A DNA stretch of 52,977 nt from Bacillota bacterium (GTDB lineage: Bacteria > Bacillota > Clostridia > Christensenellales > WQRI01), in NCBI GenBank assembly GCA_009786825.1, contig WQRI01000003.1:1-52977 (forward strand), read 5' to 3'. The number at the start of each line of letters is the position of its first letter. Position 1 is the stretch's first letter. The position numbers and the translations under genes are program-made. This document shows positions 4,679 to 45,147 of this stretch, piece by piece. The notes under the pieces were generated by a model. The model had not been told where the DNA came from, made no database searches, and worked only from the letters and a program-made list of their open reading frames with translations.

Positions 4679-5424
4679 GAATAGTTTCAGCATTATTTTT
4701 AAACAACTTTCGCGACTTGCTTAAAACACCTACGCTTTTAATAAGTTTACTTATGTTTCCGGCAATAGCAGTTATAATGGCAATGTTCTTGCCTGTGCCT
4801 GAATATGGCGAAGAAAACTATTTAGAAGGGCTTACTGCCGGGCTTTTAGCGGCGAGTATGTTTGCGCCGATGTTTGTTGCTATGGGACCAATCAACACAG
4901 CCTCTAATAGCATAGCGGAAGATATAGAAAAGAAGCGCTTACGCTTTTTGATTATGGCAGGGGTAAATGCCGGGCATTATTTGGCGGCTATAATACTTTT
5001 TGTTATGGCAACATCTATACCGCCGATTATTGTTTTTGGGCTTATTGCACAGTTAAGTGTGTTTGGCTTTTCGGTGTTTTTTGGGGTTATGTTGGTGTCT
5101 ACGCTTGCGGCTACTGTTTTGGGTGCTATGGTTGGTATACTGTCTAAGAGTTTGCAACAAGCGGGGTCTATTAGCATAATGGCTATGATGTTTTTTGGTT
5201 TTATACCGATGTTTGTACCAATGATGGATATAGATGCGCTGAGCAACATAGCACAGTTTTTGTTTACGTATCAACTAAGGGAAGTTATGTTTTACGAATT
5301 AGTAGATGATGTAAATTTACTAAGGGCTATCGGAATAATTTTAGCAAATTTTGCTGTGTTTATAGCATTGTTTGCATATGTATATAGAAAGAGAGGCTTA
5401 AAGGGCAAACTGAGTGAAGAGTAA
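4675..5424 (+). CDS. ABC-2 type transporter permease
   Basis: 249-aa polytopic hydrophobic protein. Its ATG overlaps the ATPase stop (ATGA at 4675-4678). Confidence 0.75.
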   Translation: MRIVSALFLNNFRDLLKTPTLLISLLMFPAIAVIMAMFLPVPEYGEENYLEGLTAGLLAASMFAPMFVAMGPINTASNSIAEDIEKKRLRFLIMAGVNAGHYLAAIILFVMATSIPPIIVFGLIAQLSVFGFSVFFGVMLVSTLAATVLGAMVGILSKSLQQAGSISIMAMMFFGFIPMFVPMMDIDALSNIAQFLFTYQLREVMFYELVDDVNLLRAIGIILANFAVFIALFAYVYRKRGLKGKLSEE

Positions 5425-5426
5425 AC

Positions 5427-5585
5427 AATTTTAAATTTTAAATTTTTAATGTTAAATGTTTTCACCGCTAGCGCGGGCAAGATTACGTTTTGCAAATTGC
5501 GAGAATGTGTAACTTGTGGCTGTTAAAAAGTTTTGTCTATTACGAGTTTAATAATTTAACATTTAAAATTTAAAATTTAACATTA
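5427..5585 (+). repeat. F1 element copy C (forward)
   Basis: Arm AATTTTAAATTTTAAATTTTTAATGTTAAATG, TTTTCACCGCTAGCGCGGGCAAG, TTTGCAAAT, GCTGTTAAAAAG, CGAGTTTAA, right arm AATTTAACATTTAAAATTTAAAATTTAACATT. Confidence 0.9.
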
Positions 5586-5592
5586 AAATAAT

Positions 5593-6528
5593 ATGTTACA
5601 TAAATCTATTACAACCCTTGTGGGAAATACACCGCTTATAGAACTTGTTAATTATAACAAGGCTAATGGTTTGGGCTGTAAAATTATCGGTAAGTTAGAG
5701 AGTTTTAACCCAGCGGGCAGCGTTAAGGATAGAATTGCCCTTAATATGATTTTGGAAGCAGAGCGCGCGGGCTTGTTAAAGGCAGATAGTACTATTGTAG
5801 AGCCAACAAGTGGCAACACGGGGATTGGGCTTGCTAGTATTGCAGCGTCGCGGGGCTATAAAGTTATACTTACAATGCCCTCAAGTATGAGCAAAGAGAG
5901 GGTGCAATTGTTTAAAGCATACGGCGCGGAAGTTGTTTTAACCGAGGGCGCTTTGGGTATGAAGGGCGCAATTGCTAAGGCAGAGCAAATTGCTGCCGAA
6001 ACCAAAAATTCTTTTATGCCAAAACAGTTTGATAATGCGGCTAACCCTGCCGTTCATTTCGCAACTACAGGTCCAGAGATTTGGAAAGACACGGGTGGTG
6101 CTATAGATATTTTTGTAAGTGGCGTTGGCACGGGCGGAACAATTACGGGGGCGGGCAGTTTTTTAAAGTCTAAAAACCCTAGTCTTAAAATTGTTGCGGT
6201 AGAGCCTTTCGACAGCCCGGTTTTGTCTAAAGGCGTTGCTGCGCCACACAAAATACAAGGCATAGGGGCGGGATTTGTTCCAAGTATATTAAACACAGAA
6301 ATCTACGACGATATTATAACAGTTACAACAGAAAACGCAACACTCACTTCACGCGCCCTTGCAAAACTAGAGGGCTTACTTATGGGGATATCCTCAGGCG
6401 CTGCGCTTTTTGCAGCAACCCAGTTAGCAAAAAAACAAGAGAACAAAAACAAAACCATAGTAGTAATACTGCCCGACACGGGCGAGCGATATTTATCGAC
6501 AGAGTTGTTTTGCGAAGCAAAACAATGA
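5593..6528 (+). CDS. cysK: Cysteine synthase A (O-acetylserine sulfhydrylase)
   Basis: GNTPLIEL...[16 protein letters not shown]...[10 protein letters not shown]...[10 protein letters not shown] motifs, 311 aa. Confidence 0.9.
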
Positions 6529-6529
6529 T

Positions 6530-6679
6530 AAATGTTAAATTTTAAATGTTAAATGTTTTCACCGCTATCGCGTACAAAATCTATTTGCAAATTGCTTGCA
6601 AGCAAAAATTGCGACTGTTCAAAAGTTGTGGATTTTATGAATTCAGACATTTAACATTTAAAATTTACAATTTAACATT
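6530..6679 (+). repeat. F1 element copy D (forward)
   Basis: AAATGTTAAATTTTAAATGTTAAATG, TTTTCACCGCTATCGCGTACAAAAT, ATTTGCAAAT, ACTGTTCAAAAG, ATGAATTCAGA, CATTTAACATTTAAAATTTACAATTTAACATT. Confidence 0.9.
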
Positions 6680-6695
6680 ACCAAAAGGAGATTTT

Positions 6696-7361
6696 ATGGA
6701 AAATTTTTTAGAAAGACGTCAAGGTGTAGAAGACTTGCTTAGTTGTTTATTACGAGAGCCGTTCAGCGAGACTGAAGCAAAAGTTTTGCTAAAGTTTGGT
6801 ATTGCAAAAAATATAGACAACAGCAAGTTAGAAGAATTTCTAAGTGCGCTAGGCGAGACAAAACAAAGCATAAAAAAAGACCAGCAGTTTTTGTATGATA
6901 ACGACCCGTCCGTTACGGGCGTAGACCAAATTGCAAGTTTTACAAGTTTTTTTGCAGTAGCCGCTTACAGAATAGCGCACATTTTTCCGTGCGAAAAAAT
7001 TGCAAGGCAAATCTCTGAGTTTGCAAAATCTCTTACGGGGGTAGATATTCACCCAAAAGCAAAAATAGGCGTACCCTTTGCGGTAGACCACGGCGTAGGC
7101 ACAGTTATAGGTGAGACTGCCGTTATAGGCGATAGTTCTATGCTATACCACGGCGTAACCCTAGGCGCAAAGCATCTAAAAGAGCGCGAGCAAGTAGGGG
7201 AAGACCGCCACCCAAAACTAGGCAACAAAGTAATAGTATACTCTAACACAACAATACTAGGCAACATAAACGTACCCGACGGGCTAATCATAGGCGCAAA
7301 CAAATTCATAAAAAGCCAACAAGAAATAGATGAACTACAATCTAAATTCGGAAGCAGGTAG
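6696..7361 (+). CDS. cysE: Serine O-acetyltransferase
   Basis: Hexapeptide-repeat region HPKAKIGVPFAVDHGVGTVIGETAVIGDSSMLYHGVTLGA...HPKLGNKVIVYSNTTILGN. SD AAGGAG at 6685-6690. The first 50 aa of the track ORF are translation of F1 copy D. Confidence 0.85.
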   Translation: MENFLERRQGVEDLLSCLLREPFSETEAKVLLKFGIAKNIDNSKLEEFLSALGETKQSIKKDQQFLYDNDPSVTGVDQIASFTSFFAVAAYRIAHIFPCEKIARQISEFAKSLTGVDIHPKAKIGVPFAVDHGVGTVIGETAVIGDSSMLYHGVTLGAKHLKEREQVGEDRHPKLGNKVIVYSNTTILGNINVPDGLIIGANKFIKSQQEIDELQSKFGSR

Positions 7362-11605: not shown

Positions 11606-11896
11606 ATGGGTAGGTCATTAAAGAAAGGACCTTTCGTCTGCGAGAGGTTATTAAAAAGAGTAGAAGATATGAACGCAAAAGGCGAGAAAAAGCCAGTTAG
11701 AACTTGGTCGCGCTCGTCTACTATCTTCCCAGAGTTTGTAGGGCATACGATTGCTGTACACAACGGAAAAAAGCATATACCAGTATATTGCACGGAAGAT
11801 ATGGTAGGGCATAAACTTGGCGAATTTTCTCCAACAAGAACTTACTATGGGCATATAGTGGATAAGAAGAAGAAGGGTTCGGGCAAGAAGAAATAA
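11606..11896 (+). CDS. rpsS: 30S ribosomal protein S19 (uS19)
   Basis: [10 protein letters not shown]...[47 protein letters not shown] at 11597-11600. The track ORF's N-terminus is translation of F1 copy G. Confidence 0.97.
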
Positions 11897-12049
11897 TGTT
11901 AAATGCTAAATGCTAAATGTTAAATTGTTATACCGCTAGCGCGGGCAAGTTTCACCTTGCAAACTATCAAAAGGCAGAAATTGCAAACTGTTCAAATGCA
12001 GATGCTGTTAATGTGTTTAACCATTTAACATTAAAAATTTAACATTAAA
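11896..12049 (+). repeat. F1 element copy H (forward)
   Basis: AATGTTAAATGCTAAATGCTAAATGTTAAATTG, TTATACCGCTAGCGCGGGCAAG, CTTGCAAAC, ACTGTTCAAATG, CCATTTAACATTAAAAATTTAACATT. The arm begins with the last A of the rpsS TAA. Confidence 0.85.
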
Positions 12050-12108
12050 AATTATAACTTAAATTACAAAACTTAAACCGAATATTTTAAGTTTTAAGGG
12101 ATAACAAA

Positions 12109-12495
12109 ATGGCAACAAGAAGTAAAGAAAAAGCAGCAAAAAGAAAAGAAAATAAAGACAAGCGCCCGCGCGCTCACGCGAGATATATAAGAATATCTCC
12201 AAGCAAGGTGCGTATTGTTATAGATTTAATTAGGGGCAAAGAGTATTACGAGGCTTTGGCTATTTTAGAAAATACTCCAAAGGCGGCGTCTCCTATTGTA
12301 AAAAAGGTTTTAAATTCGGCGGCAGCAAATGCTGAGAATAACCTTAACCTTTCTAAAGATGGTTTGTTTGTTGCAGAAATTTTTGCAGACAGCGGACCAA
12401 CATACAAAAGGTTCAGACCACGCGCAAGGGGCAGAGCGCACAGAATATTAAAGCGCACTTGTCATATAACGGTAATACTAGAAAGCGCGATATAA
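12109..12495 (+). CDS. rplV: 50S ribosomal protein L22 (uL22), basic N-terminal extension
   Basis: [19 protein letters not shown]....A..IL...PK.A...V.KVL.SA.ANAENN. Confidence 0.95.
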
Positions 12496-12496
12496 T

Positions 12497-12655
12497 AAAT
12501 GTTAAATGCTAAATTTTAAATGTTTAATTGTTACACCGCTTAGCGCGGGGCAAAATCAATTTGCAAATTTTATACAAATCAAAGTGCTAACTGTTCAAAA
12601 TTAAAGTATTTAAAGGGTTTAAACATTTAACATTCAACATTTAAAATTAAACATT
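12497..12655 (+). repeat. F1 element copy I (forward)
   Basis: AAATGTTAAATGCTAAATTTTAAATGTTTAATTG, TTACACCGCTTAGCGCGGGGCAAAAT, ATTTGCAAAT, ACTGTTCAAAAT, AACATTTAACATTCAACATTTAAAATTAAACATT. Confidence 0.9.
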
Positions 12656-12670
12656 ATATAGAGGAAAATA

Positions 12671-13360
12671 ATGGGACAAAAAGTTAATCCGATAGGCCTT
12701 AGAGTAGGCATAATAAAAGATTGGGAATCTAAGTGGTTTGCAGACAAAAAAGACTTTGCAAATTTTTTGCACGAAGACCATAAAATCAGAAACCACATAT
12801 TTAACAAGTATGGTAACCATAGTTCTAGTAACTATTGCGGTATTTCGCAAGTTATAATAGAGCGCGCGGCTACAAGGCTTACTGTGTCTATTCACACTTT
12901 TAAGCCGGGGCTTTTAATTGGTAAGGGCGGTGCTGGTATAGAGGCACTAAAGCGCGAGCTTAAAAGAATAGTTAAAACAAACAAGCAAATTTTTATAAAT
13001 GTTATAGAAGTTAAGCGCCCAGACTTAGATGCAAAACTTCTAGCAGAGAGAGTTGCCCTGCAACTAGAAAAGCGTGGCTCGTTTAGGCGCGCTATGCGTT
13101 CTGCAATTCAGAGCGCTATGAGAGCGGGTGCTAAGGGTGTTAAGACTATGGTAAGCGGGCGACTAGACGGGGCAGAAATTGCAAGGTCAGAGCATTACCT
13201 AGAAGGTTCTATTCCGCTTCACACACTAAGGGCAGATATAGATTATGCTATTGCAGAGGCAAGAACAGCCTTTGGTCAGGTTGGTGTAAAAGTTTGGATA
13301 TATAAAGGCGACATTATCGGTAACGAGACTAGCAAAGAAAAGCAGAAAATAACGTTGTAG
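12671..13360 (+). CDS. rpsC: 30S ribosomal protein S3 (uS3)
   Basis: [12 protein letters not shown]....W.S.WFA....KPG..IGK.G..IE.L...EV..P.LDA.L.A...A.QLE.R..FRRAM. Confidence 0.97.
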
Positions 13361-13455: not shown

Positions 13456-13992
13456 ATGTTAATGCCAAGAAGGGTAAAAAGAAGAAAACAACATAGAGGT
13501 AGAATGAAGGGTATTGCCACAAGGGGTAATGTTATTGCCAATGGAGAATTTGGTATAATGGCACTAGAACCTTCGTGGATGACAAGCAGACAAATAGAAG
13601 CCGCACGTCGTGCTATGACAAGGTCTATTAGGCGTGGTGGTAAAGTATGGATAAACGTATTCCCTCATAAGCCAATTACTAAAAAGCCGGCTGAGACGCG
13701 AATGGGTAAAGGTAAGGGTAGCCCGGAGTATTGGGTTGCTGTTGTTAAGCCTAATCGTATTTTATTTGAAATGAGCGGGGTATCGGAAGAAGCGGCAAGA
13801 GAGGCTATGCGCCTTGCAATTAACAAACTGCCTATGAAGGCTAAGTTTGTTACGCGCAAAGAGTTAGAGGCAAGTGGCGTTATATCTCAAAAAATATTAA
13901 ACAATAAAATAAGGGCAGAAAAAGAAACTGCTAAAAAGGCTACAGAAGTGGCAGAAGCAACACAAGCAACTGACAAAGTGGAGGGCAAATAA
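13456..13992 (+). CDS. rplP: 50S ribosomal protein L16 (uL16), with an approximately 40-aa C-terminal tail
   Basis: [24 protein letters not shown]....GEFG..ALE. SD GGTGGAG at 13439-13445. Tail [39 protein letters not shown]. Confidence 0.95.
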
Positions 13993-14390
13993 TGAAAGCA
14001 AAAGAATGGAACAAGTTAACGGACGACGAGTTGATGTCTAAACTTAAAGATTTAAAAAATGAGTTATTTAACCTGCGCTTTGCCCACGCGACAAGACAAT
14101 TGTCTAACCCTTTGTCGCTTCGCACTACAAAAAAGGATATAGCAAGAATAAAAACAATTCTGCACGAGAGAGAACTTAAAACGGGTATAAAGCCTACGCA
14201 AGTTAAGGCACTAGAAACTAAGGCTGTTAAAAAGCCGGTGGAAACTAAAAAAGTTGAAGCAAAAAAAGTTGAAGCAAAAAAATCGGCTGAAGTAAAAAAG
14301 CCTACTGAGACTAAGGCGACAAGTGTTAAAAAAGTGGCAGAGGCTAAACAGACTGGCGCTATAGAAAAAAAGGCAGGAGGAGATAAATAA
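13992..14390 (+). CDS. rpmC: 50S ribosomal protein L29 (uL29), with an approximately 65-aa Lys-rich C-terminal tail
   Basis: [32 protein letters not shown] core. The ATG overlaps the rplP TAA by 1 nt. The tail contains [12 protein letters not shown]. Confidence 0.93.
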
Positions 14391-15817
14391 TGAGTGAAAA
14401 AAATATCCCTGCCACCAAGGCAGAAAAGTTAAAACAAACTATAGCAGACAACAAAGAAAAGGTTAAAGAAGCAAAGGTTGCACTATCTACTCTTCAAAAA
14501 GATGAAAAGGCAGCGTCTGCTTTAGTACTTAAATACGAAAAAAGTCTAGATACTTCTAACAAGTCTTTACAAAAGGCTGTTGGGCTTAAAGAGAGTTTAG
14601 CTTTAGCGGTAGAAAAAGCAAATGCTGGCAAGGCTGATGCGGCTGCAAACCTAAAGCAAAAGCAAGCAGATGCTAAGGCTAAAAAGGGTGACGGCAAAGC
14701 GGCGGAAGCAGTAGCAAAAGCGGAAGAGAGGCTTCAAAAAGCGAACACGTCCCTAGAGGCTGCTAAAATTAAAAACTCAGCAAACGAAATTATCATAAAA
14801 GAAAAGACTAAAGAAGTAGCGGGCATACAAAAAGATATAGAAAAAACGCAAAAAAGCGTTGCGGGTATAACTTCTAAACTACCTACGGCGCAAAAAAAGA
14901 TAGACGACCTAGAAGCAAAACTTACAAAAGCACTAGCAGACTTAGAAGCAGAAAAGGCTAAGGGCGCAGAGACTAAAGGCAAGGTTGCACCAGCGCCAAA
15001 GGCTACAGAGGCTAAGGCGGCTGCACCAAAAAAAGTTGCGGACAAGCCGGCGGCTAAGGCAGGGGCGAAAGCTGAAAAGCCGAAAGCTAGTCCAAGGGCA
15101 ACTGAAAAGGTTGCGACTAAGGTCAGTGAAAAAACAGCACCAAAGGCTACTACGGCAGAACCTGCAAAGGCTGTAAAGGCTACTACGCCAGCACCAACAC
15201 CAATAATTACTAAAAAGGCGGTAACTGTTAAGGAAGTAGATGGCGCAATTGTTGCTACTAAAAAAGTGGTAACAGTTAAGCAAGCGGGTGATAGCATAGC
15301 GGTTGTAACATCTAAGCAGGCAGTAACAGTAAAGCAAGCAGACGGAACATCAGTTACGCACAAGCCAAAAATTGTAGGCGAGTCTGATGTATCTGTATCA
15401 GAGTTTACAAGACCAGAAAAAAGGCAACAACTACAAACTGCTAAAAAGCAAAAACCACGTAAGGCGGTTGCATACTCTAGACCAGTTAAAACAATTAAAG
15501 AGGTTAAGCGCCAAAGAGAAGATGCGGCTAAAAAATCTGCAGAACTACTAGTAGAGCGTGCAGAGCGCAGACCACTTAGAAAAACAAGAACAGGAATTGT
15601 CGTATCTAACAAAATGGACAAAACAATTGTTGTTGCTGTTGTGTCTAAAGTTAAGCACCCAATCTACAAAAAAACAGTTAACCAAACAAAGAGATATAAA
15701 GCGCACGACGAAAACAACACAGCGGGCATAGGCGACACAGTATTAATTGCAGAGACTAGAAAACTTTCTAAAAACAAGTATTTTAGACTAGTAGATATTG
15801 TTGCACGCGCCAAATAA
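14390..15817 (+). CDS. rpsQ: 30S ribosomal protein S17 (uS17) fused to an approximately 391-aa N-terminal Lys/Ala-rich extension
   Basis: The C-terminal 84 aa (from about 15563), [69 protein letters not shown], are canonical S17. SD AGGAGGAG, and ATG 14390 overlaps the rpmC TAA. No start codon or SD lies near the core. Confidence 0.9.
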
Positions 15818-15972
15818 TGTTAAATTGTAAATGTTAAATGTTTAATTGTTTCACTCGCTAACGCTACAATATTTTTTGCACATTATACGTAATACAAAAT
15901 TTAGACTGTTAAAAAGCAAAAGCCTTAAAAGCGTGCAAACACTTTACACTTTACATTCTACATTTTACACTA
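15817..15972 (+). repeat. F1 element copy K (forward, diverged core)
   Basis: AATGTTAAATTGTAAATGTTAAATGTTTAATTG, TTTCACTCGCTAACGCTACAAT, TTTTGCACAT, ACTGTTAAAAAG, arm CACTTTACACTTTACATTCTACATTTTACAC. Confidence 0.8.
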
Positions 15973-16029: not shown

Positions 16030-16404
16030 ATGGTACAAATGCAAACGAGGCTAGTAGTTGCAGATAACTCTGGTGCAAAAGAGATTATGTGCATTAGGGT
16101 ACTAGGCGGCTCATTTAGAAAAAGCGGTAATATTGGCGATATAATTGTAGCAAGTGTTAAGTCGGCAAACCCGGGCGGAAACGTTAAAAAGGGTGATGTT
16201 GTAAAGGCACTTATTGTTAGAACGCACAAGGGCATAACGCGCCCAGATGGCTCTACAATTAAATTCGATGATAATGCGGCAGTAATAATAGATAATAACA
16301 AGCAACCACGCGGAAGCCGTGTTTTCGGACCAGTTGCAAGAGAAATAAGAGATAAAGATGCGGCTTTTGCAAAAATAGCATCTTTAGCACCAGAAGTTTT
16401 ATAA
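16030..16404 (+). CDS. rplN: 50S ribosomal protein L14 (uL14)
   Basis: [23 protein letters not shown]...[36 protein letters not shown]. Confidence 0.98.
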
Positions 16405-16608
16405 ATGTTAAATTGTAAATGTTAAATGTTTAATGGTTTCACCGCTAGCGCGGGCAATATTATATTTGCAAATTGTATTAATTATGAAAATGCAGGCTGT
16501 TAAAAAGTTTGGTATATAATGAGTTCAGCCATTTAACATTTAAAATTAAACATTTAACATTTACAATTTAACATTAAAATAAGCATTTAACATTAAAAAT
16601 TTAACATT
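16404..16608 (+). repeat. F1 element copy L (forward, extra partial right arm)
   Basis: AATGTTAAATTGTAAATGTTAAATGTTTAATG, GTTTCACCGCTAGCGCGGGCAAT, ATTTGCAAAT, GCTGTTAAAAAG, ATGAGTTCAGC, CATTTAACATTTAAAATTAAACATTTAACATTTACAATTTAACATT, plus a second arm piece at 16584-16608. Confidence 0.9.
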
Positions 16609-16623
16609 AATATAAGGGTGAAT

Positions 16624-17094
16624 ATGAATACTTTACACGTAAAAAAAGGTGATACGGTTTTGGTACTTGCTGGAAAAGACAAAGGTAAAAAAGGCAAGGT
16701 GTCTGCTACGTTCCCTAAAAAAAATAGAGTAGTAGTTGATGGAGTTAACACAATTACTAAGCACAAAAAAGCAAGAGACCCTAAAGATAAGTCGGGCAGA
16801 ATAAAGTTAGATGCGCCAATTAATGCATCTAATGTTATGGTAATTTGCTCTAAGTGCAACAAAGCAACGCGTATTGCAAAAGTAAAGGCAGAAAACGGCA
16901 AAATGGTAAGGGCTTGCAAAAAGTGTAATGCATTACTTGGTAACACTAGCATTGCTAAAAAGCGTACGGCTAAGTCTGACAAGGCTGATAAGGCGGTAGA
17001 CAAGGCAGACAAAAAGGTTGCTAAAAAAGAGAAAGAGCCAAAAGTTGCAGACGAGAAAGAAACCAAAAAGAAAAAAGATAAAATATTAGTGTAA
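16624..17094 (+). CDS. rplX: 50S ribosomal protein L24 (uL24), with a Cys4 knuckle and an approximately 50-aa Lys-rich C-terminal tail
   Basis: LHVKKGDTVLVLAGKDKGKKGKV...KNRVVV.GVN. KOW core. CSKCNK...CKKCN. Tail AKKRTAKSDKADKAVDKADKKVAKKEKEPKVADEKETKKKKDKILV. GTG 16618 is the alternative start. Confidence 0.92.
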   Translation: MNTLHVKKGDTVLVLAGKDKGKKGKVSATFPKKNRVVVDGVNTITKHKKARDPKDKSGRIKLDAPINASNVMVICSKCNKATRIAKVKAENGKMVRACKKCNALLGNTSIAKKRTAKSDKADKAVDKADKKVAKKEKEPKVADEKETKKKKDKILV

Positions 17095-17167: not shown

Positions 17168-20100
17168 ATGAGTAAGGAAAAAAATCAGGTTGCTAAAGCA
17201 ACTGCAACCGATAAAACGAAAAAGCCAGCAGACAAAAAAGTTGTGGCTAAAAAAGAAACTGCTGCTAAAAAGCCAGCGGTAAAAAAAGAAGCGAAGCCAG
17301 CAGTTAAAAAAGAAACTGCTGTTAAGAAGCCTGCTAGTGCGGGTGCTTTAGATATTTCTAAGCAAAAAGCGGCGGCGTACAAAGTGTACGAGGCTAGCAT
17401 TAAAACAATCGCTGGTATAGAAAAAGATTTAGGGGCTTCTCACCTACAGCAAGCAAAAGCACTAGAGGCTGTAAGCAAACTTAACAAGTCGGCGGAAGCG
17501 CTTGTGACTAAGCAAGGCTCACTTCAAAAGCAATCTGATGATGCTAAGAAAAAACTTGAGGTGGCAAACAAAGAAGTTACAACTGCTAAGGCAGAAGTTA
17601 CAAAAGTAAAGGCTACGGCAACAAAAGCAAAGGCAGATGCATCTAAGGCAGAAGCAGATTTTAAAAAGGCGCAAACAAAAGTTGCACCTATTAAAGATGC
17701 GGTTGCAAAACTAGATAAAGAGTTAAAGGGCGCAAACGAAGCAACGCAAAAGGTTAAAAAAGCGGTTGTAGATACGTCCAGTGCGCTTAACACAACGGCT
17801 AAAGATGTAGAGGCTACATCTAAGGCTGTGCAAGATACATCTAAAACATTGCAAGACAGCACTAAGGCTTTAGGGGTTGCTGCTAAAGAAACTATTAAGG
17901 CACTAGAGAAGTTAAACAAAGTAAAAGCGGGTGACGACAAAGCAAAAAAAGCGGCAGAAGCCGAGCATAAAAAAGCGGTTAGCGCAGAAGAAAAGGCTAA
18001 GGCTTCTAACGAGAAGGCTAAGGTTGCAAGCGAAAAAGCAAAAGCGGCAAGCGAAAAGGCTAAGGCTGTAAACGAAAAAGCAAAGGCGGATAATGCTAAG
18101 GCTAAGACTGAGTCTAAAAAGTCTGATGAAAAACTAGCAAATGCGCAAAAAGACCAAAAGGCAAAGCAAGCAGACTTAACAAAGGCAGAGGCAGATGTTG
18201 CTAAGTTGTCTAAAGCGGTTGAGAGTGCAAAAACGGCGCAAAAATCGGCAGAGACAAAAGCGACGGCGCACGAGCAAAAAGTTAAGACGCTTGAGACAAA
18301 ACTTAAAGCAGAAAAAGATAAAGAAACAAAAATTTCGGCAGATATAAATAAAACAAAAGCAGAACTAGATAAAACAAAAAAGCAACTAGTTGTAGAGACT
18401 AAAAAAGAAAAAGACATAACAACTAAAGTATCTAAACTAGAAAAAGATGTAGACAAAGCGGCAAAAGAAAAAGAGAAGGCTTTTAACGCTTTAGTTAAGG
18501 TTATAACAACAGACATCAATCAAACAGAAGCGCAAAAAATTGCGGTAGACAAAGAGTTAACAAACGCTAAAGGGCAAGTTAGCACATTGGCTAAAGAAAA
18601 CACGGCTTTAAGCGCGCAAGTTAAAAAGTTAGAATCAGATGTTGCAAAAGCAACGCAAGGCTCTAACAAGTCGGCAGAAAAGGCAAAGCAGACAGCAGAG
18701 CGTGTTAAAAAGGCGTCGTTAGATGTTAAAGAAGCAAACAAAAAAGTACAAGAGAGTTTAAACGACCTTGTAAAAATAGATAAAGACACTAAAAAAGAAA
18801 GAGACGATTTTGCTAAAGCAGTAGAAAAGGCGGGCGCGCAAGATAAGGCGGCTAGTGATAAGTTAAACGCTAATTTTGCTAAAGCAAAAGCAGATATAGA
18901 TAAGGCTAATGCAAACAAAACAGCGCTAGAAGATGCTAGAAAAAAGGCTACAGAGCAACTAGCGCAAGCGCACCAAAAGTATAAAGATGCAGATGCGAAA
19001 GTTAAACTAGCGGGCAAAGAAAAGGTTTCGGGAGAGCTTCTAGATAAAATTAACAAAACGTTTGCGGGCGCGGCGGAAAGGCTAGAAAAGGCAAAGGCAA
19101 CAGAAAAGACTGCTAAAGACAAAATTGTGGCAAACGACAAACTAGTTAAAGACAAAGAAAAAGAGTTAGCAAAACACAAAGCAGACCTAGACAAACTTAA
19201 CAAAAAAATACAAGCAGACAAAACTAAGAGTGCGGACGCTAAAAAGAAACTAGATGAAAAAATAAAGGGGCTGATAGAAAAAACTAATGCTAAGCGCGAG
19301 GCGGCAAGTAGTGCTAAAGCAAAAGCAGACGAGGCTTTCAAGCAAGCAGAAGCACAAAATGCTCAGATTGTAGATGAAAAGAAAAAGGCAGATGATGTTA
19401 CAAAAACGTTGTCAGCGCAAAAGCAAGATGTAGATAAGAAGTTCCCTGTTGTTGCTAAACAACTAAAAGATGTTGAAGCGACTATTGCAAAAAATGAGCC
19501 TGTATCTAAAGCGCTAGGGGTAGAGATTGCAAGTAAGCGTGCAGAACTAGAGGCACTAATTGGCAAAACTAAAATGCCGGCGGTTAAAAAGCCAGCGGAA
19601 GTTAAAGTTGTTGCTAAGCCAAAACCACCAGCAGTTATTGCTAAGCCTGAGACTAAGGTGGCAGACAAAGCACAACCTAAGGTGGCAGATAAGGCAGAGC
19701 CGGTTAAGCCAGTTGCCCAGCCAATTGTAAGGGACAGAACTGCTGCTAAAGCGGATGCGGCGGCTCAGCGCGAGCAGCAACGTGCAGACCAAGTGGCTGC
19801 TAAACTGCAAAGCCAAAAGCAAGCGGCAGAGGCAGAAGCGGCAAGGCGCGCGACTGCTAAAGTTGAGGGTGATACTAGGCGTGCGGCAGAGCAAGCGGCA
19901 GCGGCTGCAGAGCAAGCGGAAGCAAGGCGTGCAGAAGCACTAGCAAGGCGCGAAGCAGAAGCACAAGAGGCGGCGACTAGCGCAGAAGCGGCAGAGCGCG
20001 AAAAACTAGCGACTCAAAAAGCAGAAGAAAAGGCAGCGGCAGAAAAAGCGACAAGGGAAGCAGAGGCAAAAGAAAGAGCAGAGCGCGAAGCGGCAGAAGC

Positions 20101-20749
20101 AAAAGCAAGGGCAGAGCGCGAGGCACTAGAGCGCGCTAAAAGAGAGGCTCAAGCACGCGAAAAAGCGGCAGAAGCGGTTGCAAAACTTAAGCGCCCAGCA
20201 ACGCCAAGACACCGCCTAAAACAGCACTACATCAACAACGTTATGCCGGCTTTAATGAAAGAGTACGCATACAAAAATGTAATGCAAGTTCCTAAAATAG
20301 ATAAAATCGTACTTAATATGGGGCTAGGCGATGTTAAAGACGACAGCAAAAAACTTCAGCAAGCGGTTAAAGAGTTAGAGCTTATCGCGGGTCAGCGCCC
20401 TGTTATCACTAAGGCTAAAAAATCTATAGCAACATACAGACTACGTCAGGGTATGAGCATAGGTTGTAAGGTAACACTTAGAGGCGAGCGTATGTACGAG
20501 TTTTTAGATAGATTTATCTCAATAGCACTACCAAGAAAGCGCGACTTTAGGGGTATCCCATCAAAGTCTTTCGATGGTAGGGGTAACTACGCAATGGGTA
20601 TAAAAGAACAACTTATTTTCCCAGAAATCTCGTACGATACTGTAGACAAAATAAGGGGCTTCGACATTGCAATTGTTACAACAGCCTACACAGATAAAGA
20701 AGCACTATCTCTACTTAAATCACTAGGCTTACCATTTACGACAAACTAA
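17168..20749 (+). CDS. rplE: 50S ribosomal protein L5 (uL5) fused to an approximately 1015-aa N-terminal Lys/Ala/Glu-rich, coiled-coil-like extension
   Basis: The last approximately 178 aa (from about 20213), [40 protein letters not shown]...[20 protein letters not shown], are canonical L5. A single uninterrupted ORF of 1193 aa. No ATG/GTG/TTG with SD lies at the core boundary. Confidence 0.88.
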
Positions 20750-21030: not shown

Positions 21031-21215
21031 TATCAAGCACTATAAACGGCGCAATACTTCGTTAAGGTTTACGGTTTTCTTGTTTGCGTACGCCAAGTAC
21101 GCGGCACGGCGAAAATCCGCACCTTTCCGACCGAGCCGTAAACCGTAAGGTTTTAGCCTTTTGCGTAGCAAAAGCGTCAAAAGGCGAGGTGTCTTGCTTG
21201 TTTCTAGCACTTGAT
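21031..21215 (+). repeat. F2 element copy 2 (long form, with the 65-nt module)
   Basis: Starts at the base after TAG. Outer IR TATCAAGCAC.../...GCACTTGATA, hairpin GCGTAC-GCCAA-GTACGC, module CGACCGAGCCGTAAACCGTAAGGTTTTAGCCTTTTGCGTAGCAAAAGCGTCAAAAGGCGAGGTGT at 21128-21192. Confidence 0.88.
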
Positions 21216-22465: not shown

Positions 22466-22653
22466 TTAAAATCCGTATATACTTCGCAATACGGCGTCAA
22501 GGCTTACGGTTTGCGCGGTTACGTACCGAGTGGTACGCGCCCTTGCAAATCCGCGCCTTTTCGACCGAGCCGTAAACCGTAAGGTTTTAGCCTTTTGCGG
22601 TAGCAAAAGCGTCAAAAGGCGAGGTGTCTTGCTTGTATCTACGAATTTTAATT
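22465..22653 (+). repeat. F2 element copy 3 (long form)
   Basis: Outer IR AATTAAAAT/ATTTTAATT. The first A is the last base of the rplF TAA. GCGCGG/CCGCGC stem, hairpin CGTACC-GAG-TGGTACG, 65-nt module at 22562-22627. Confidence 0.88.
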
Positions 22654-23227: not shown

Positions 23228-24511
23228 ATGTCAGAAGTTAAAGATAAAACAAAAAAGGAAGCAAAGCCAAAGGCAGAACCTAAAGCAAAGGCTGAAAAAG
23301 CGCCAGCAAAGGCTAAAGCTGAACCTAAGGCTACTACTGCAAAGGCAGAGCCAAAAGCAAAAGCAGAAAAAGTACCTGCTAAGTCTACTGCTACTAAAGT
23401 AGAAAAGCCAAAGGCAGAGCCTAAGGCTAAGGCTGAACCTAAGGCTAAGGCTGAGAAAGCGCCGGCTAAAGCTACTACTGCTAAAGCAGAGAAGCCAAAG
23501 GCTGAGCCTAAGGCTAAGGCGGAGCCAAAAGCAAAAGCTGAAAAAGCACCTGCTAAAGCAAAGGCAGAACCTAAGGCAAAAGCAGAACCAAAAGCAAAAG
23601 CTGAAAAAGCACCTGCTAAGTCTACTGCTACTAAAGCAGAGAAGCCAAAAGCAGAGCCTAAGGCAAAAGCAGAAAAAGCACCTACTAAAGTGGAAAAGCC
23701 AAAGGCTGAGACTAAGCCAAAGGCAGAGCCAAAGAAAGCAGAGCCTAAGGCAGAAAAAGTGGTTGCTGAAAAGGCGGTGGCTAAGGCTACTGCTAAGCCT
23801 GCTGAAAAGGCAGTCGTTGCTGAAAAGCCAACTGATAAGCCAGTTAGGGCAGACAAGGCTACTGCTACTGGGGCAGACAAGGCGGCGGCAAGAACTGGTG
23901 GTGCAGATAGAACAAGACAAACGGATAGACCAGCGGGCAGAGATGGTGAGGCTCAATCTAGCGAAAGAGGTCAGCGCGAACGTGGCGACAGACGCCCACC
24001 AAGAGAGCAAGACGATACAAAGCGTAAACTTATTGCTGTTAGGCGCGTTACTAAAGTTGTTAAGGGCGGACGCAATATGCGATTTAGTGCTTTAGTAGTT
24101 GTAGGGGATGGCGCTGGTATGATAGGCATAGGCTCGGGGCGCGCTAACGAAGTTCCGTCTGCTATTGAAAAGGCGGTGCAAGAAGCAAAGCGCAAAATGC
24201 AAAAGGTTTCACTTTTCGATACAACTATACCGCACAATGTAATCGGCAAGTTTGGCACTTCTCGCGTTATAATGTTACCAGCATCTAGGGGTACTGGTGT
24301 TATAGCGGGTGGTCCGGTTCGTGCTGTTATGGAAGCGGTAGGAATTAAAGATATCAGAACAAAGTGCCACGGCACGAATAACCCTATAAATGTTACAAGG
24401 GCTGTTATAGATGGGCTTATGCAACTAAGAACCAAAGAAGAAGTAGCGGCGCTTAGGGGCAAAACAGTAGCAGAATTAATGGGACAAAAAGAGACTGGGG
24501 AGGTGAAGTAA
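23228..24511 (+). CDS. rpsE: 30S ribosomal protein S5 (uS5) fused to an approximately 264-aa N-terminal KAEPKAKAE-repeat extension
   Basis: Core from about 24020: [55 protein letters not shown]...[25 protein letters not shown] precedes ATG 23228. No internal start at the core boundary. Confidence 0.9.
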
Positions 24512-24512
24512 T

Positions 24513-25160
24513 ATGTCTAAAGAGAAAGAAAAAGTAAAGACTACTACCGCCTCAAAGCCAAAGGCAGAGCCTAAAGCAAAGGTAGAAAAGCCAAAGACTG
24601 CGGACAAGCCAAAAGTAGAAAAGGCAAAGGCAGAAAAAACTTCGCCATCTAAAATGGAAAAGCCGGCTACAAAAACCAAAGAAGTTGCTACAAAAACAGA
24701 AAAAGCAAAGGCAGAAGTTACTAAGGCTACAAAGACTACGGAAAAGACTGCACCAAAAACTACAACTGAAAAGGCAGAAAAAACAGCAAGTGCTAAGCAG
24801 TCTGTGCCACAAGTTAAGGCTTCTAAAGCGGCTAGTAAAACTACAAAGTCTAACAGACAAGTTCATATAACTAAAAAAGCAAAAAAGAAGCCAGACTTTA
24901 AAGGCTCTGTAAAAATAGTGCTTGTAAAGTCTACAATTGGGGCTTTACAAAGGCACATAGATACTATTACGTCTTTGGGCTTAAAGCGCATAAGAGACGA
25001 AGTTATACAACCTTTTAACGCGGCAACGGCGGGCAAAATTCACCACATCAAGCACTTAGTAAAAGTAGAATATATGCCTACAACTAATGCCCCAAAAAAG
25101 CCAAAGCACGTAAGCAAGTATAAAGCAAGCAAGTTAGAAGCAGCAAAAAAAGCAAAGTAG
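24513..25160 (+). CDS. rpmD: 50S ribosomal protein L30 (uL30), with an approximately 132-aa N-terminal Lys/Thr/Ala-rich extension and an approximately 25-aa C-terminal tail
   Basis: Core VKIVLVKSTIGALQRHIDTITSLGLKRIRDEVIQPFNAATAGKIHHIKHLVKVE from about 24909. SD GGAGG, and the ATG lies 1 nt after the rpsE TAA. Confidence 0.88.
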   Translation: MSKEKEKVKTTTASKPKAEPKAKVEKPKTADKPKVEKAKAEKTSPSKMEKPATKTKEVATKTEKAKAEVTKATKTTEKTAPKTTTEKAEKTASAKQSVPQVKASKAASKTTKSNRQVHITKKAKKKPDFKGSVKIVLVKSTIGALQRHIDTITSLGLKRIRDEVIQPFNAATAGKIHHIKHLVKVEYMPTTNAPKKPKHVSKYKASKLEAAKKAK

Positions 25161-25162
25161 TC

Positions 25163-25326
25163 AATGTTAAATGTTTAATTTTAAATGTTAAATGGTTAAA
25201 CTCATTATTGCAAATAGTTTCAAACAGCCTGCATTTAATCTTTTATTATAATTTGCAAAATGAGATTTTGCCCGCGCTAAGCGGTGAAACCATTAAACAT
25301 TAAAAATTTAACATTAAAAATTTAAC
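25163..25326 (-). repeat. F1 element copy O (reverse)
   Basis: AATGTTAAATGTTTAATTTTAAATGTTAAATG, GTTAAACTCATT, TTTCAAACAGCC, ATTTGCAAAAT, TTTTGCCCGCGCTAAGCGGTGAAAC, CATTAAACATTAAAAATTTAACATTAAAAATTTAAC. Confidence 0.9.
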
Positions 25327-25981: not shown

Positions 25982-27304
25982 ATGTTCAGTACATTAGTAA
26001 GAGGGTTTGCAGACCCATCAATTAGAAAAAAGTTAATCGTAACACTTTTGCTGGTTGTAGTATATAGAATAGGTTGTATTGTTCCGGTTCCCGGAATTGA
26101 TGCACAAATTTTTAACGACGAAGTTGCGAACAACGAGTTTTTAGGAATATTAAGCGCGATAACAGGTGGAGCGTTAGCCAACGGGGCTTTCTTTGCTATG
26201 GGTATAGCGCCGTATATTAACGCTAGTATAATAATGCAACTTTTAACTATTGCCTTGCCACGACTTCAAGCATTATCTAAGCAAGGCACAGATGGGCGTA
26301 AAAAAATAGCACGATATACAAGATACCTAACACTTGTTCTAGCAATTATACAAGCGGTTGGCTTAGTTGTTGCGTGGGGCGATGCTTCAATTTCAACAAC
26401 TCTACTAGAGCCTATTTTCGGAACGAACGATGCGGCTAATAGGTGGGTAACAACCATTATGGTTATATTGTTCTTTACGGCGGGTACTGCATTTACTGTT
26501 TGGATAGGAGAGCGCATAACAGACCTAGGCATAGGTAATGGTATATCACTACTAATTTTTGTAGGAATAATAGCAACGGCGGGTAACGCATTAAGAGACA
26601 ACATACTAGCAATTTCTATGGATAACTTGTACCCAGTTTGGGGACTCTTAGGCTTTGTCGGCTTGTTAATACTGATATTTGCGCTAATTATATATGTAGA
26701 TATGGCACAGCGGAAAATCCCCGTACAGTACGCAAAACAAGTTAAGGGCAGAAAAATGTATGGCGGACAAAGCACTTTCATACCAATGAAAATAAACGCG
26801 AGCGGTGTTTTACCTATTATATTTGCTTCCAGTTTGGTTGCATTCCCAAGCCTTATACTAATGGTTTTCAATATAACTGATGGGTGGTTTGCAGACTTTT
26901 GGAACAGATTTATGTTAATGGGTCGCCCGCTATATACAGTTGTAACTGGTTTGTTGATATTAGGTTTTGCGTTTTTCTATGCGCAGGCTAATTTCGACCC
27001 AATAGATGTATCTAGAAACATTCAGCAAAACGGGGGCTTCATACCGGGAATCAGACCGGGCAGACCAACGGCAGAATATCTAAAGCGGGTTCACACGCGC
27101 ATAACACTTTTTGGTGCGCTATTCTTAGCGGCAGTTGCAATAATACCGGCATTTATATTTGGCTTTGTTGTTCCGGGTAACCAAACGCTTATTAATGCGT
27201 TTACAGCAACCGGTATGCTAATTGTTGTATCCGTAGCGCTAGAGTTAGACAGACAAATACAAGCACAATTAATGATGAAGCAATACAAAGGCTTTTTAGA
27301 TTGA
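25982..27304 (+). CDS. secY: Preprotein translocase subunit SecY
   Basis: 440-aa polytopic protein. RKKLIVTLLLVVVYRIG..VPVPGID...GI.PYI.ASII.QLL...GGFIPGIRPG..T..YL. SD AAAGGAG. Confidence 0.97.
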   Translation: MFSTLVRGFADPSIRKKLIVTLLLVVVYRIGCIVPVPGIDAQIFNDEVANNEFLGILSAITGGALANGAFFAMGIAPYINASIIMQLLTIALPRLQALSKQGTDGRKKIARYTRYLTLVLAIIQAVGLVVAWGDASISTTLLEPIFGTNDAANRWVTTIMVILFFTAGTAFTVWIGERITDLGIGNGISLLIFVGIIATAGNALRDNILAISMDNLYPVWGLLGFVGLLILIFALIIYVDMAQRKIPVQYAKQVKGRKMYGGQSTFIPMKINASGVLPIIFASSLVAFPSLILMVFNITDGWFADFWNRFMLMGRPLYTVVTGLLILGFAFFYAQANFDPIDVSRNIQQNGGFIPGIRPGRPTAEYLKRVHTRITLFGALFLAAVAIIPAFIFGFVVPGNQTLINAFTATGMLIVVSVALELDRQIQAQLMMKQYKGFLD

Positions 27305-27307
27305 TAA

Positions 27308-27457
27308 AATGTTAAGTGTTAAATTTTTAATGTTAAATGGTTTCACCGCTTAGCGCGGGCAAAATGATTTTGCAAAATGGGTAAAATTTTCTAGCATACA
27401 CTTAAACAGTTTTGTGGTTTAACAATTTAAAATTTAACATTCAACATTTAGCATTAA
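27308..27457 (+). repeat. F1 element copy P (forward)
   Basis: AATGTTAAGTGTTAAATTTTTAATGTTAAATG, GTTTCACCGCTTAGCGCGGGCAAAAT, TTTTGCAAAAT, ... right arm AACAATTTAAAATTTAACATTCAACATTTAGCATT. Confidence 0.85.
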
Positions 27458-29081: not shown

Positions 29082-29450
29082 ATGAATAAAACAGCAAAGT
29101 CAGCAAAAAAGAAAAAAGGCAAAATAGAACATAGCAAAGTTTTACTAGGGGCGCAGATGCCAGAATCTAACCCAAAGCCTGTCTACATTGCAAAAGTAGG
29201 TAGTGTGGTGAAATCACTCGCGGGCAGAGACAAGGGCAGTTTGTATATAATATACAGTATTATAGATGCGAATTTTGTCTACTTAGTAGATGGGCGTGGC
29301 AAAAAAATTACAACTCCTAAAAAGAAAAAACTAAAGCACATAAAACTAACGGGAGATGAGTTAGCAAACATAGCCTTAAAAATTAAAGAAAGCAAAGTTA
29401 TACACGATGCGGAAATCTCAAGCGCATTAAGAAAGTTATCACAAGTTTAA
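29082..29450 (+). CDS. KOW-domain RNA-binding protein, found between map and infA in Clostridia
   Basis: VGSVVKSLAGRDKGSLYIIYSIIDANFVYLVDGRGKKITTPKKKKLKHIKL. The start is ambiguous (ATG 29082 with AAGGGG, or ATG 29157 with AGGGG). Confidence 0.7.
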   Translation: MNKTAKSAKKKKGKIEHSKVLLGAQMPESNPKPVYIAKVGSVVKSLAGRDKGSLYIIYSIIDANFVYLVDGRGKKITTPKKKKLKHIKLTGDELANIALKIKESKVIHDAEISSALRKLSQV

Positions 29451-33470: not shown

Positions 33471-33658
33471 ATTTGAAGTCGTATATACTGCGCAATACTT
33501 CGTCGAGCGTTACGGTTTTCTGCGGTCACGTACATTTAGTACGCTCCCTTGAAAATCCGCCGCTCTTCGACCGAGCCGTAAACCGTAAGGTTTTAGCCTT
33601 TTGCGTAGCGAAAGCGTCAAAAGGCGAGGTGTCTTGCTTGTATCTACAACTTCAAATC
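33470..33658 (+). repeat. F2 element copy 6 (long form), followed by a duplicated right end at 33675-33693
   Basis: Outer IR AATTTGAAGT/ACTTCAAAT. The first A is the last base of the rpoA TAA. Hairpin CGTAC-ATTTA-GTACG, 65-nt module at 33568-33632. ATCTACAACTTCAAATCAT is repeated 14 nt downstream. Confidence 0.88.
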
Positions 33659-39735: not shown

Positions 39736-40173
39736 ATGCAAAACAAGTTAATTAAAGAGATTTTAGCGGCAGAGGCAGAGGCAGACATTATTGTTAAAGA
39801 TGCAAGAGAGAAGTCTGCACAAATTGTTACTAGCGCAAAAAGGCAAGCAGAGACCATTATTGAAGAGTTAGCAAAAAAGGCTAACATTGAGACTGCTCAG
39901 ATATTGTCTAGCATAGAAACAGATGAGAGAGTTATAAAAAAGTACGAGGCAGAGTTTAGCGAAAAGGCAAAAAACTTAAAGGCGGAAGCAACAAAAAAGT
40001 ATGCTAAAGTTGCTGATTTTATAGTTGGCGCTGTAGTGCAAAAATATTCGGGCGTGGAAGAGACTGCGGCTAAAAAAGCACCGGCTAAGGCTTCGGCTTC
40101 TAAGGCTACTGCTAAGGCTGCGCCAAAGACTACTGCTTCTAAAACTACGGCTAAAAAGCCAGCAAAAAAATAG
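39736..40173 (+). CDS. ntpF: V-type ATPase small peripheral-stalk subunit (NtpF/G-like), with an Ala/Lys/Thr-rich C-terminal tail
   Basis: First gene of the ntp cluster. N-terminus LIKEILAAEAEADIIVKDAREKSAQIVTSAKRQAE is typical of stalk subunits. Tail AAKKAPAKASASKATAKAAPKTTASKTTAKKPAKK. Confidence 0.6.
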   Translation: MQNKLIKEILAAEAEADIIVKDAREKSAQIVTSAKRQAETIIEELAKKANIETAQILSSIETDERVIKKYEAEFSEKAKNLKAEATKKYAKVADFIVGAVVQKYSGVEETAAKKAPAKASASKATAKAAPKTTASKTTAKKPAKK

Positions 40174-42268: not shown

Positions 42269-42271
42269 TTC

Positions 42272-42430
42272 AATGTTAAATTTTAAATGTTTAATGTTTA
42301 ATGGTTTCACCTGCTTCGCGGGCAAGTTTCATTTTGCAAATTTAAAGCAAATGAAAACTGCGACGCTCAAATGTACGGCATATAATGAGTTTAACCATTT
42401 AACATTTAAAATTAAACATTTAACATTTTA
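42272..42430 (+). repeat. F1 element copy V (forward)
   Basis: AATGTTAAATTTTAAATGTTTAATGTTTAATG, GTTTCACCTGCTTCGCGGGCAAG, TTTTGCAAAT, ATAATGAGTTTAAC, CATTTAACATTTAAAATTAAACATTTAACATTTTAAAT. Confidence 0.88.
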
Positions 42431-42486
42431 AATAAATAAATAAAATTCATAAAGTTGGTTTTGTGTAACCAACAAGGAGAAAAAAA

Positions 42487-44991: not shown

Positions 44992-44993
44992 TT

Positions 44994-45147
44994 AATGTTA
45001 AATTTTAAATTTTTAATGGTAAATGTTTTCACCTGCTTCGCAGAAATATTTATTTGCAAGTTGTTCGCAAGTGAAAATTCTGACTGTCAAAAGAAAAAAA
45101 CACAAAGGATAAAACAATTAAAAATTTAACATTTAAAATTTAACATT
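44994..45147 (+). repeat. F1 element copy X (forward)
   Basis: AATGTTAAATTTTAAATTTTTAATGGTAAATG, TTTTCACCTGCTTCGCAGAAAT, ATTTGCAAGT, GACTGTCAAAAG, arm CAATTAAAAATTTAACATTTAAAATTTAACATT. Confidence 0.88.

Follow-up and report, generated by a model that had tools for sequence, protein, structure and literature searches.

Introduction

To our knowledge, bacterial ribosomal proteins (r-proteins) are among the most size-constrained proteins known, and the documented extensions of bacterial uS17 amount to tens of residues. In the ribosomes of Mycobacterium smegmatis and Cutibacterium acnes, uS17 has an extended N-terminus, which contacts 16S rRNA at h7/h9 in the 30S body (PMC5876184, PMC10085706), and an alanine- and lysine-rich (A/K-rich) tail has been described for uS19 in Parcubacteria (PMC9297842). 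The uS17 extension comprises about 13 amino acids (aa) in M. smegmatis, and the M. tuberculosis chain (135 aa, core 54–135) is the longest bacterial uS17 in the Protein Data Bank (PDB). Here we describe a uS17 that exceeds every uS17 chain in the PDB: in a window of 52,977 nucleotides (nt; the whole stretch of DNA analysed, from contig WQRI01000003.1 of assembly GCA_009786825.1) belonging to a gut-type Bacillota bacterium (Clostridia; Christensenellales; WQRI01), the rpsQ gene encodes 475 aa, compared with a usual uS17 length of ~85 aa. We consider it probable that this is a genuine rpsQ translated as one 475-residue protein from the ATG at 14390, and that its extension is a lineage-specific appendage at the solvent side of the ribosome.

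A complete uS17 core behind a long N-terminal extension

The rpsQ open reading frame (ORF; 14390..15817, + strand) is a single stop-free frame encoding a protein of 50.9 kDa (isoelectric point, pI, 10.0). It is placed between rpmC (uL29) and rplN (uL14), the canonical position within an S10/spc cluster that runs on the + strand in S10-spc-alpha order (uS10 ... uL16, uL29, uS17, uL14, uL24, uL5 ... uS5, uL30, uL15, SecY ... RpoA, uL17). The canonical bacterial uS17 OB-fold domain was assigned to aa 396–475 (15575..15814, + strand) from Pfam, NCBIfam and PDB alignments. Pfam Ribosomal_S17 (PF00366) matches aa 402–468 with 99.8 bits against a cut-off of 25.9, NCBIfam uS17_bact (TIGR03635) matches aa 397–468 over model positions 1–72 of 72 with 104.9 bits against a cut-off of 88.7, and solved bacterial S17 chains align from aa 392–394 through 475 (phmmer against the PDB). 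As the profile and structure matches begin at aa 392–397, the extension comprises ~391–396 residues. An initial annotation of this DNA had reported a uS17 with an N-terminal extension of ~391 residues, and we recovered the ORF exactly as it described, with core matches from aa 397. Judged by these matches and by gene order, the protein ends in a complete uS17 OB-fold of bacterial type (~80 residues), encoded in the rpmC–rpsQ–rplN position, and departs from the uS17 family criteria only in its length (typically ~80–105 residues).

Probable translation of the extension together with the core

The rpsQ start codon is preceded by the Shine-Dalgarno (SD) sequence AGGAGGAG (14375..14382, + strand; 7 nt 5' of the ATG), which is the strongest SD of the window's r-protein genes; nearly all other r-protein genes of the cluster also have a recognisable one. 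The ATG (14390–14392) overlaps the rpmC stop codon (TAA, 14388–14390) within the sequence TAATG (14388..14392, + strand), the last A of the stop being common to both, an overlap that implies translational coupling. In-frame ATG, GTG or TTG codons occur in the ORF only at codons 1, 293 (GTG), 409 (ATG) and 418 (GTG), and an SD is present at codon 1 only. GTG293, which lacks an SD, is the sole in-frame start between codon 1 and the onset of S17 homology (aa 392–397), the scan of in-frame codons revealed no start codon where S17 normally begins, and the only near-cognate in-frame codons with a weak SD-like 4-mer upstream were ATT127 and ATT287. The internal ATG at Met409 (15614..15616, + strand), which is the start chosen in an NCBI record, lacks an SD and falls within the conserved OB fold.

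A codon model trained on 27 window genes without a long low-complexity extension gave an S17-frame coding signal of +0.53 to +0.65 bits/codon in each of four extension segments; the core scored +0.50, and both other frames were negative. An open stretch of 391 codons is not expected by chance: when the nucleotides of the extension were shuffled 20000 times, every shuffle contained stops (mean 23). Identical DNA (100%) is found on contigs of ENA ERZ27257339 and ERZ27257340, Logan SRR6219166 and JGI 3300002450, and the 475-aa protein is also present in the GEM catalogue; this recurrence across several assemblies, which are possibly not biologically independent samples, excludes an assembler-specific error. 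No fusable gene lies between rpmC and rpsQ in any relative examined. The initial annotation had noted the ATG overlapping the rpmC stop after a strong SD and had taken translation of the extension to be deliberate, and the SD, the coupling to rpmC, the start-codon scan and the core-like codon bias all agree with it, as far as sequence can tell. Internal initiation and sequencing error, which it had named as the explanations able to overturn its claim, found no support in the SD and start-codon scan, the coding signal or the identical assemblies. From this sequence evidence, the extension is very probably translated as one protein carrying the S17 domain.

Anatomy of the extension

The whole extension (41.8 kDa, pI 9.9, net charge about +38) consists of four parts, namely a coiled-coil hairpin, an A/K/P/T-rich polycation, a set of VTVK repeats and a basic linker with a helix. 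Structures were modelled by single-sequence AlphaFold, for the full-length protein and for aa 266–475 alone. AlphaFold, heptad periodicity and Foldseek point to a predicted antiparallel coiled-coil hairpin at aa 10–195 (14417..14974, + strand), with helices at aa 10–97 and 102–195 (predicted local distance difference test, pLDDT, 87–97 for the block) joined by the turn KKGDGK at about aa 98–103 (GDG, aa 100–102), so that each arm would measure about 90 residues or roughly 13 nm. Hydrophobic periodicity peaks at exactly 3.5 residues in both helices, the observed power being attained by 5% and 0.7% of shuffles, respectively. The helical character proposed for the first segment in the initial annotation is thus borne out by the model (pLDDT above 90) and by the heptad periodicity. 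Foldseek matched the hairpin to 6ewy, 3g6b and 2ysu with template modelling (TM) scores of 0.81, 0.69 and 0.83, respectively (target-normalised; E 3e-4 to 1.5e-2), and the region is best described, on the basis of these models, as an antiparallel coiled-coil hairpin without an identifiable family.

The composition shifts along the extension, as had been observed at the outset, from a K/A/E-rich region (aa 1–190) to the AKP stretch quoted in the initial annotation (aa 204–235, nt 14999–15094). The latter falls within a predicted disordered polycationic tether (aa 196–274, 14975..15211, + strand) of A/K/P/T-rich, histone-H1-like composition, with a pI of 10.3 and pLDDT below 40 (residue fractions for aa 191–274: A 0.29, K 0.21, T 0.13, P 0.13). 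It is followed by three tandem repeats of 16–18 aa with the core K[KQ]xVTVK[EQ]..[DG][GD] (aa 275–324, 15212..15361), of which R1 spans aa 275–290 (15212–15259), R2 aa 291–308 (15260–15313) and R3 aa 309–324 (15314–15361), all on the + strand. The three repeats had been claimed previously and are clearly present, the best off-diagonal 12-mer score being 43, whereas 2000 composition-preserving shuffles averaged 21 and never exceeded 35. Their description as short beta-hairpin units received modest support: both model runs place them as consecutive strands, but with pLDDT of only 35–46 in the full-length model and 56–71 for aa 266–475 alone, and they gave no Pfam match at E<=10 and no Foldseek match below E=0.2. 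A small beta-meander at aa 275–324 is thus plausible, but weakly predicted. The remaining part is a basic linker (aa 325–395, 15362..15574, + strand; 21 K+R compared with 10 D+E), in which a helix is predicted at aa 369–393 (nt 15494–15568; pLDDT about 80) directly before the OB fold. At the DNA level, no tandem repeat was detected in the S17 extension, the VTVK region included, and no DNA paralogous to it occurs elsewhere in the window.

Searches for homologues of the extension

An exhaustive HMMER search of 1.84 billion representative proteins returned no match to aa 1–337 among its best 150 hits. The only hits below 1e-30 in that pass (P0122 and P0123) are tandem duplications of S17 created by assembly and were rejected; such assembly-duplicated r-proteins top homology rankings because the query is matched twice. 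A full-length word-indexed search yielded low-complexity candidates and one irrelevant fusion (P0001) only, and a search with aa 324–475 retrieved ordinary S17s only, plus P0046 with a 65-aa AKP extension. The 475-aa form is itself clustered in the protein collection under the 67-aa NCBI product P0409 as representative, and is hence hidden from homology searches. Comparison with rpsQ of relatives, which the initial annotation had proposed as a check, revealed no locus with a comparable S17 in either a genome scan (uL14 query) or a metagenome scan (aa 265–475 query), with S17 lengths of 83–129 aa in the 79 complete of 80 genome-scan relatives and of 80–99 aa in 76/80 metagenome loci.

Profile searches with pieces of the extension gave sub-threshold coiled-coil noise only in Pfam and NCBIfam (EzrA, DUF7491), the full window protein had no match to PF07382 (HC2) at E<=0.01, and the PDB sequence search and Foldseek on both models returned nothing specific for the extension. 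There was no similarity to actinobacterial extensions, as phmmer against the PDB aligned aa 392–475 only (e.g. with 5v93_q 54–135). In the literature searched, we found no precedent for such long extensions of bacterial r-proteins, only short cases from Actinobacteria and the Candidate Phyla Radiation (CPR). The natural N-extended S17s that were found reach 130–197 aa and include A/K/P-rich forms, namely P0125 (197 aa), P0126 (143 aa), P0046 (148 aa; carrying a precomputed PF07382 match), P0173 and P0221, as well as acidic T/E/A/P-rich forms (P0200, P0249, P0214 and P0157). Measured against these families by sequence and predicted fold, the extension fits none of those tested: it is unlike the actinobacterial extensions, is without an HC2 match, and its coiled coil identifies a fold class only.

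Enlarged r-proteins across the cluster and in relatives

The uS17 protein is one of at least seven enlarged r-proteins in the window, which together carry about 1975 added residues. The largest is uL5 (17168–20749; 1193 aa), whose core at aa 1037–1190 (Pfam) follows a K/A/E-rich, coiled-coil-like N-extension of ~1010 residues. In uS5 (23228–24511; 427 aa) the core begins at aa 265, and the ~260 residues ahead of it are made up of AEPKAKAEK-type repeats, which can still be recognised in the DNA as tandem repeats at 23322–23802 (families D3 and D5). In uL30 (24513–25160; 215 aa, core aa 133–183), a K/T/E/A/P extension of 132 aa precedes the core and a tail follows it. The other three, uL29 (13992–14390; 132 aa), uL24 (16618–17094; 156–158 aa) and uL16 (13456–13992; 178 aa), bear K/E/A-rich C-terminal tails of roughly 40–70 residues. 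All four N-extended r-proteins open with MS[EK]x[KN] (MSEKN at 14390, MSKEKN at 17168, MSEVKD at 23228 and MSKEKE at 24513), a similarity that could stem from common ancestry of the extensions or from selection favouring A-rich codons directly after the start. Alignment of the S17 coiled coil with the uL5 extension gave a local score of 173 (maximum of 152 in shuffles; 147 for the reversed sequence), which was attributed to compositional and periodic similarity rather than taken as a sign of common origin.

The organism represents a deep branch, with best r-protein identities to any retrieved genome averaging 60–64% (52–55% for SecY). Its top r-protein matches are Christensenellales/Christensenellaceae-like gut metagenome-assembled genomes (MAGs), and the nearest genuine uS3 in 5.8 billion clusters is 70% identical and lies on a 1-kb contig; close-looking uS3 matches of 334–342 aa were rejected as artefacts of duplicated assembly (P0273/L169 and P0275/L170). 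Milder and patchy r-protein extension occurs in distant relatives, in which C-terminal tails on uL24 are common. With K/A/P-rich extensions, the uL5 proteins of L018 and L004 reach 484 and 312 aa, respectively. L173 has a uS5 of 378 aa and a uL30 of 160 aa, and in L091 most of these r-proteins carry a small AKP extension, including a uS17 of 133 aa. No long uS17 was found in relatives with such patchy extensions, across the 80 genomic relatives and 80 metagenomic loci.

Two further ORFs of the window were noted. A 145-aa protein (39736–40173) encoded immediately upstream of V-type ATPase subunit I, with no Pfam match, has a K/A/T/P-rich tail (aa 97–145), which shows that this composition is not restricted to ribosomal proteins. 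A lysine-rich ORF of 122 aa without a Pfam match lies between map and infA (29082–29450), where relatives have a 96-aa ORF that likewise matches no Pfam family.

Intergenic repeat elements

Many intergenic spacers contain an element resembling a miniature inverted-repeat transposable element (MITE), which starts at or near the stop codon. Short repeats of the AATGTTAAAT type are followed by a GC-rich hairpin (CCGC..GCGG) and a stretch of about 100 nt, after which the repeats recur as reverse complements immediately ahead of the next ribosome-binding site. The unusually long spacers of the r-protein operon (about 200 bp) are due to these elements. The copy in the uL14–uL24 spacer has perfect 31-bp terminal inverted repeats (16404–16434 and 16545–16575) and a fold of -55 kcal/mol (z = -5.3), and the copy in the uS17–uL14 spacer is degenerate (z = 0.6). 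Family copies were located at about 5423–5603, 6520–6698, 11891–12072, 12494–12674 and 15812–15971, and further ones at about 25159–25322, 27304–27455, 42268–42446 and 44990–45147. A second intergenic repeat family of about 165–170 bp, with 84–88% identity, occurs at 21041–21206 (uL5/uS8), 22474–22642 (uL6/uL18) and 33480–33647 (rpoA/rplQ), with an inverted copy overlapping 16402–16561 in the uL14–uL24 spacer that also holds a MITE-like element. An Rfam scan of the whole window identified no family.

Discussion

Several observations weigh against reading the extension as a translated, lineage-specific appendage of the ribosome. As no homologue of the extension appeared among the matches listed, neither conservation nor purifying selection is demonstrable, and the 100% identity of all contigs leaves no allelic variation from which a ratio of non-synonymous to synonymous substitutions (dN/dS) could be derived. 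Extension lengths differ greatly among relatives and a similar tail is present on the protein at 39736–40173, both of which fit a partly neutral growth. Confident regions of the single-sequence models are limited to the coiled coil and one helix, a cleaved precursor would likewise leave no such appendage, and the NCBI record of the same contig gives S17 as 67 aa starting at Met409 (P0409, 15614–15817).

The last of these points is the one argument for internal initiation, in which Met409 or GTG293 would serve as the start and the upstream 1.2 kb would be untranslated or form a separate product. S17-family homology begins 12–17 residues upstream of Met409, so that this start would delete the conserved first strand of the OB fold; moreover, neither Met409 nor GTG293 has an SD, and the upstream region is stop-free with a strong in-frame coding signal. 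The sequence largely refutes internal initiation, which we consider highly improbable, and on the same grounds the 67-aa product is regarded as a start-calling error. An assembly chimera or a sequencing indel joining an unrelated ORF to rpsQ is scarcely credible: metagenome assemblies do yield false fusions and duplications of r-proteins (e.g. P0122 and P0123 for S17, P0273 and P0275 for uS3), but here MEGAHIT-style ENA assemblies, Logan, JGI and GEM all gave the identical sequence, the gene order of the operon is intact, a single frame has coding signal throughout, and none of the relatives examined has a gene available for fusion between rpmC and rpsQ.

The two other alternatives accept the 475-aa product as translated. 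The main rival is neutral runaway growth, whereby the extension would sit on the ribosome without specific function because a mutational tendency of the lineage to grow K/A/E/P/T-rich sequence is tolerated at the solvent-exposed termini of r-proteins. It would account for the like composition of the extensions on seven r-proteins and one non-ribosomal protein, for the variation among relatives in which protein is extended and to what extent, for the construction of the uS5 extension from recent DNA-level repeats, and for the fact that no conservation of the S17 extension could be detected among the best 150 HMMER matches. However, the S17 extension has neither DNA-level repeats nor paralogous DNA in the window, half of it is non-repetitive and heptad-periodic with a very confident predicted fold, its codon usage equals that of the core, and 390 additional residues on a highly abundant protein would be costly; we therefore regard neutral growth as rather unlikely. 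Cleavage of a precursor or polyprotein, which would release a normal-size S17 from a coiled-coil/AKP portion that then exists as a free protein or is discarded as a propeptide, appears quite improbable. Firmicutes remove the N-terminal propeptide of bL27 via the Prp protease, which offers a parallel, and the linker at aa 325–395 is predicted to be mostly flexible and hence accessible. Nevertheless, we know of no cleavage precedent for uS17, no cleavage motif was recognised (no motif model was applied) and no adjacent protease gene occurs in the window gene lists, and the N-extensions of actinobacterial uS17 stay attached and are visible in ribosome structures.

Under the preferred reading of a lineage-specific appendage, a tether-plus-arm mechanism can be proposed tentatively, from the predicted models and by analogy with known ribosomes. 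As it does in every 30S subunit, the uS17 core would dock on the 5' and central domains of 16S rRNA, and its N-terminus would emerge on the solvent side of the 30S body by h7/h9, as the actinobacterial structures suggest; with a solvent-exposed N-terminus, the extension would hang off the ribosome surface rather than being buried. Archaeal uS17 models begin about 30 positions ahead of the bacterial core, which indicates that N-terminal additions are tolerated, and together with the actinobacterial h7/h9 position this points to the uS17 N-terminus as a permissive, surface-accessible site. The basic linker and its helix (aa 325–395) would probably lie on rRNA near h7/h9, and the VTVK beta repeats and the 80-residue A/K/P/T polycation could form a flexible tether compatible with nucleic acids and other polyanions. 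The coiled-coil hairpin might then be displayed at the end of this tether, up to tens of nanometres from the subunit, for protein–protein interaction or as a spacer arm, with other ribosomes, the nucleoid, polyanions and the uL5 coiled coil as candidate partners. The uS17 extension is probably one element of an organism-wide growth of surface-exposed r-protein termini, which would add about 2000 residues to each ribosome and exaggerate a tendency that is patchy in distantly related Christensenellales-like gut Clostridia.

A more far-reaching and unlikely possibility is that these ribosomes are 'hairy', with long coiled-coil arms on uS17 (30S body) and uL5 (central protuberance) acting as functional tethers to other ribosomes or to a scaffold, nucleoid or polyanion phase. 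If true, they would carry roughly 2000 extra residues, or about 25% more protein mass by a rough estimate, and would give bacteria their own version of the protein-rich remodelling familiar from mitoribosomes. A 51-kDa uS17 that bears a folded coiled-coil arm, alongside a 1193-aa uL5 and a 427-aa uS5 would, if confirmed, imply that a free-living-type bacterium can bear large structured ribosome appendages. The locus provides a concrete system for two questions, namely the role of such appendages (clustering, localisation, polyanion binding or nothing) and the onset of r-protein gigantism. The 67-aa truncation in the NCBI record is an annotation failure, and homology-guided start calling probably hides further such cases.

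Comparison with known systems

Known proteins close in kind include P0125, P0046, P0126 and the 133-aa uS17 of L091, which, like the window protein, have a K/A/P-rich, presumably disordered stretch before a Clostridia-type S17 core, with a composition resembling that of aa 196–274. These extensions are however purely low-complexity, with at most about 110 extra residues and without a coiled coil or VTVK repeats, and homology is not demonstrable. The actinobacterial uS17 proteins share the arrangement of an OB-fold with extra N-terminal residues that are kept on the ribosome, but these number 13–53, compared with about 391 here including a predicted 190-residue coiled-coil hairpin. The kinetoplastid mitoribosomal uS17m (307–336 aa, the longest uS17 in the PDB) has terminal additions around the same OB fold, as here, although it and the archaeal and eukaryotic uS17 proteins belong to other domains of life and have extension sequences unrelated to that of the window protein.

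Individual parts of the extension also have counterparts outside uS17. Chlamydia Hc2 (PF07382), Pseudomonas AlgP and the PAKKA repeats of mycobacterial Ku are described as K/A-rich tails that bind DNA, RNA or polyphosphate. Such histone-H1-like tails, to which the uS19 tail of Parcubacteria may be added, share composition and net positive charge with aa 196–274, but this segment is only one fifth of the uS17 extension and, unlike Hc2, has no Pfam HC2 match. The predicted hairpin at aa 10–195 has the same fold as the RipA N-terminal domain (TM 0.81), soluble and serine chemoreceptors, colicin receptor-binding domains and Smc arms. With TM scores of 0.54–0.83 (target-normalised), identities of 10–19% and Foldseek E values of 3e-4 or weaker, these solved coiled-coil hairpins indicate a generic fold class rather than common descent, and none of them lies within a ribosomal protein. 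Both N-terminally extended uS17 proteins and bacterial r-proteins with A/K-rich tails are already known; the size of the extension, its structured coiled-coil module and its occurrence alongside a uL5 of 1193 aa and further enlarged r-proteins are without precedent in the databases and literature searched.

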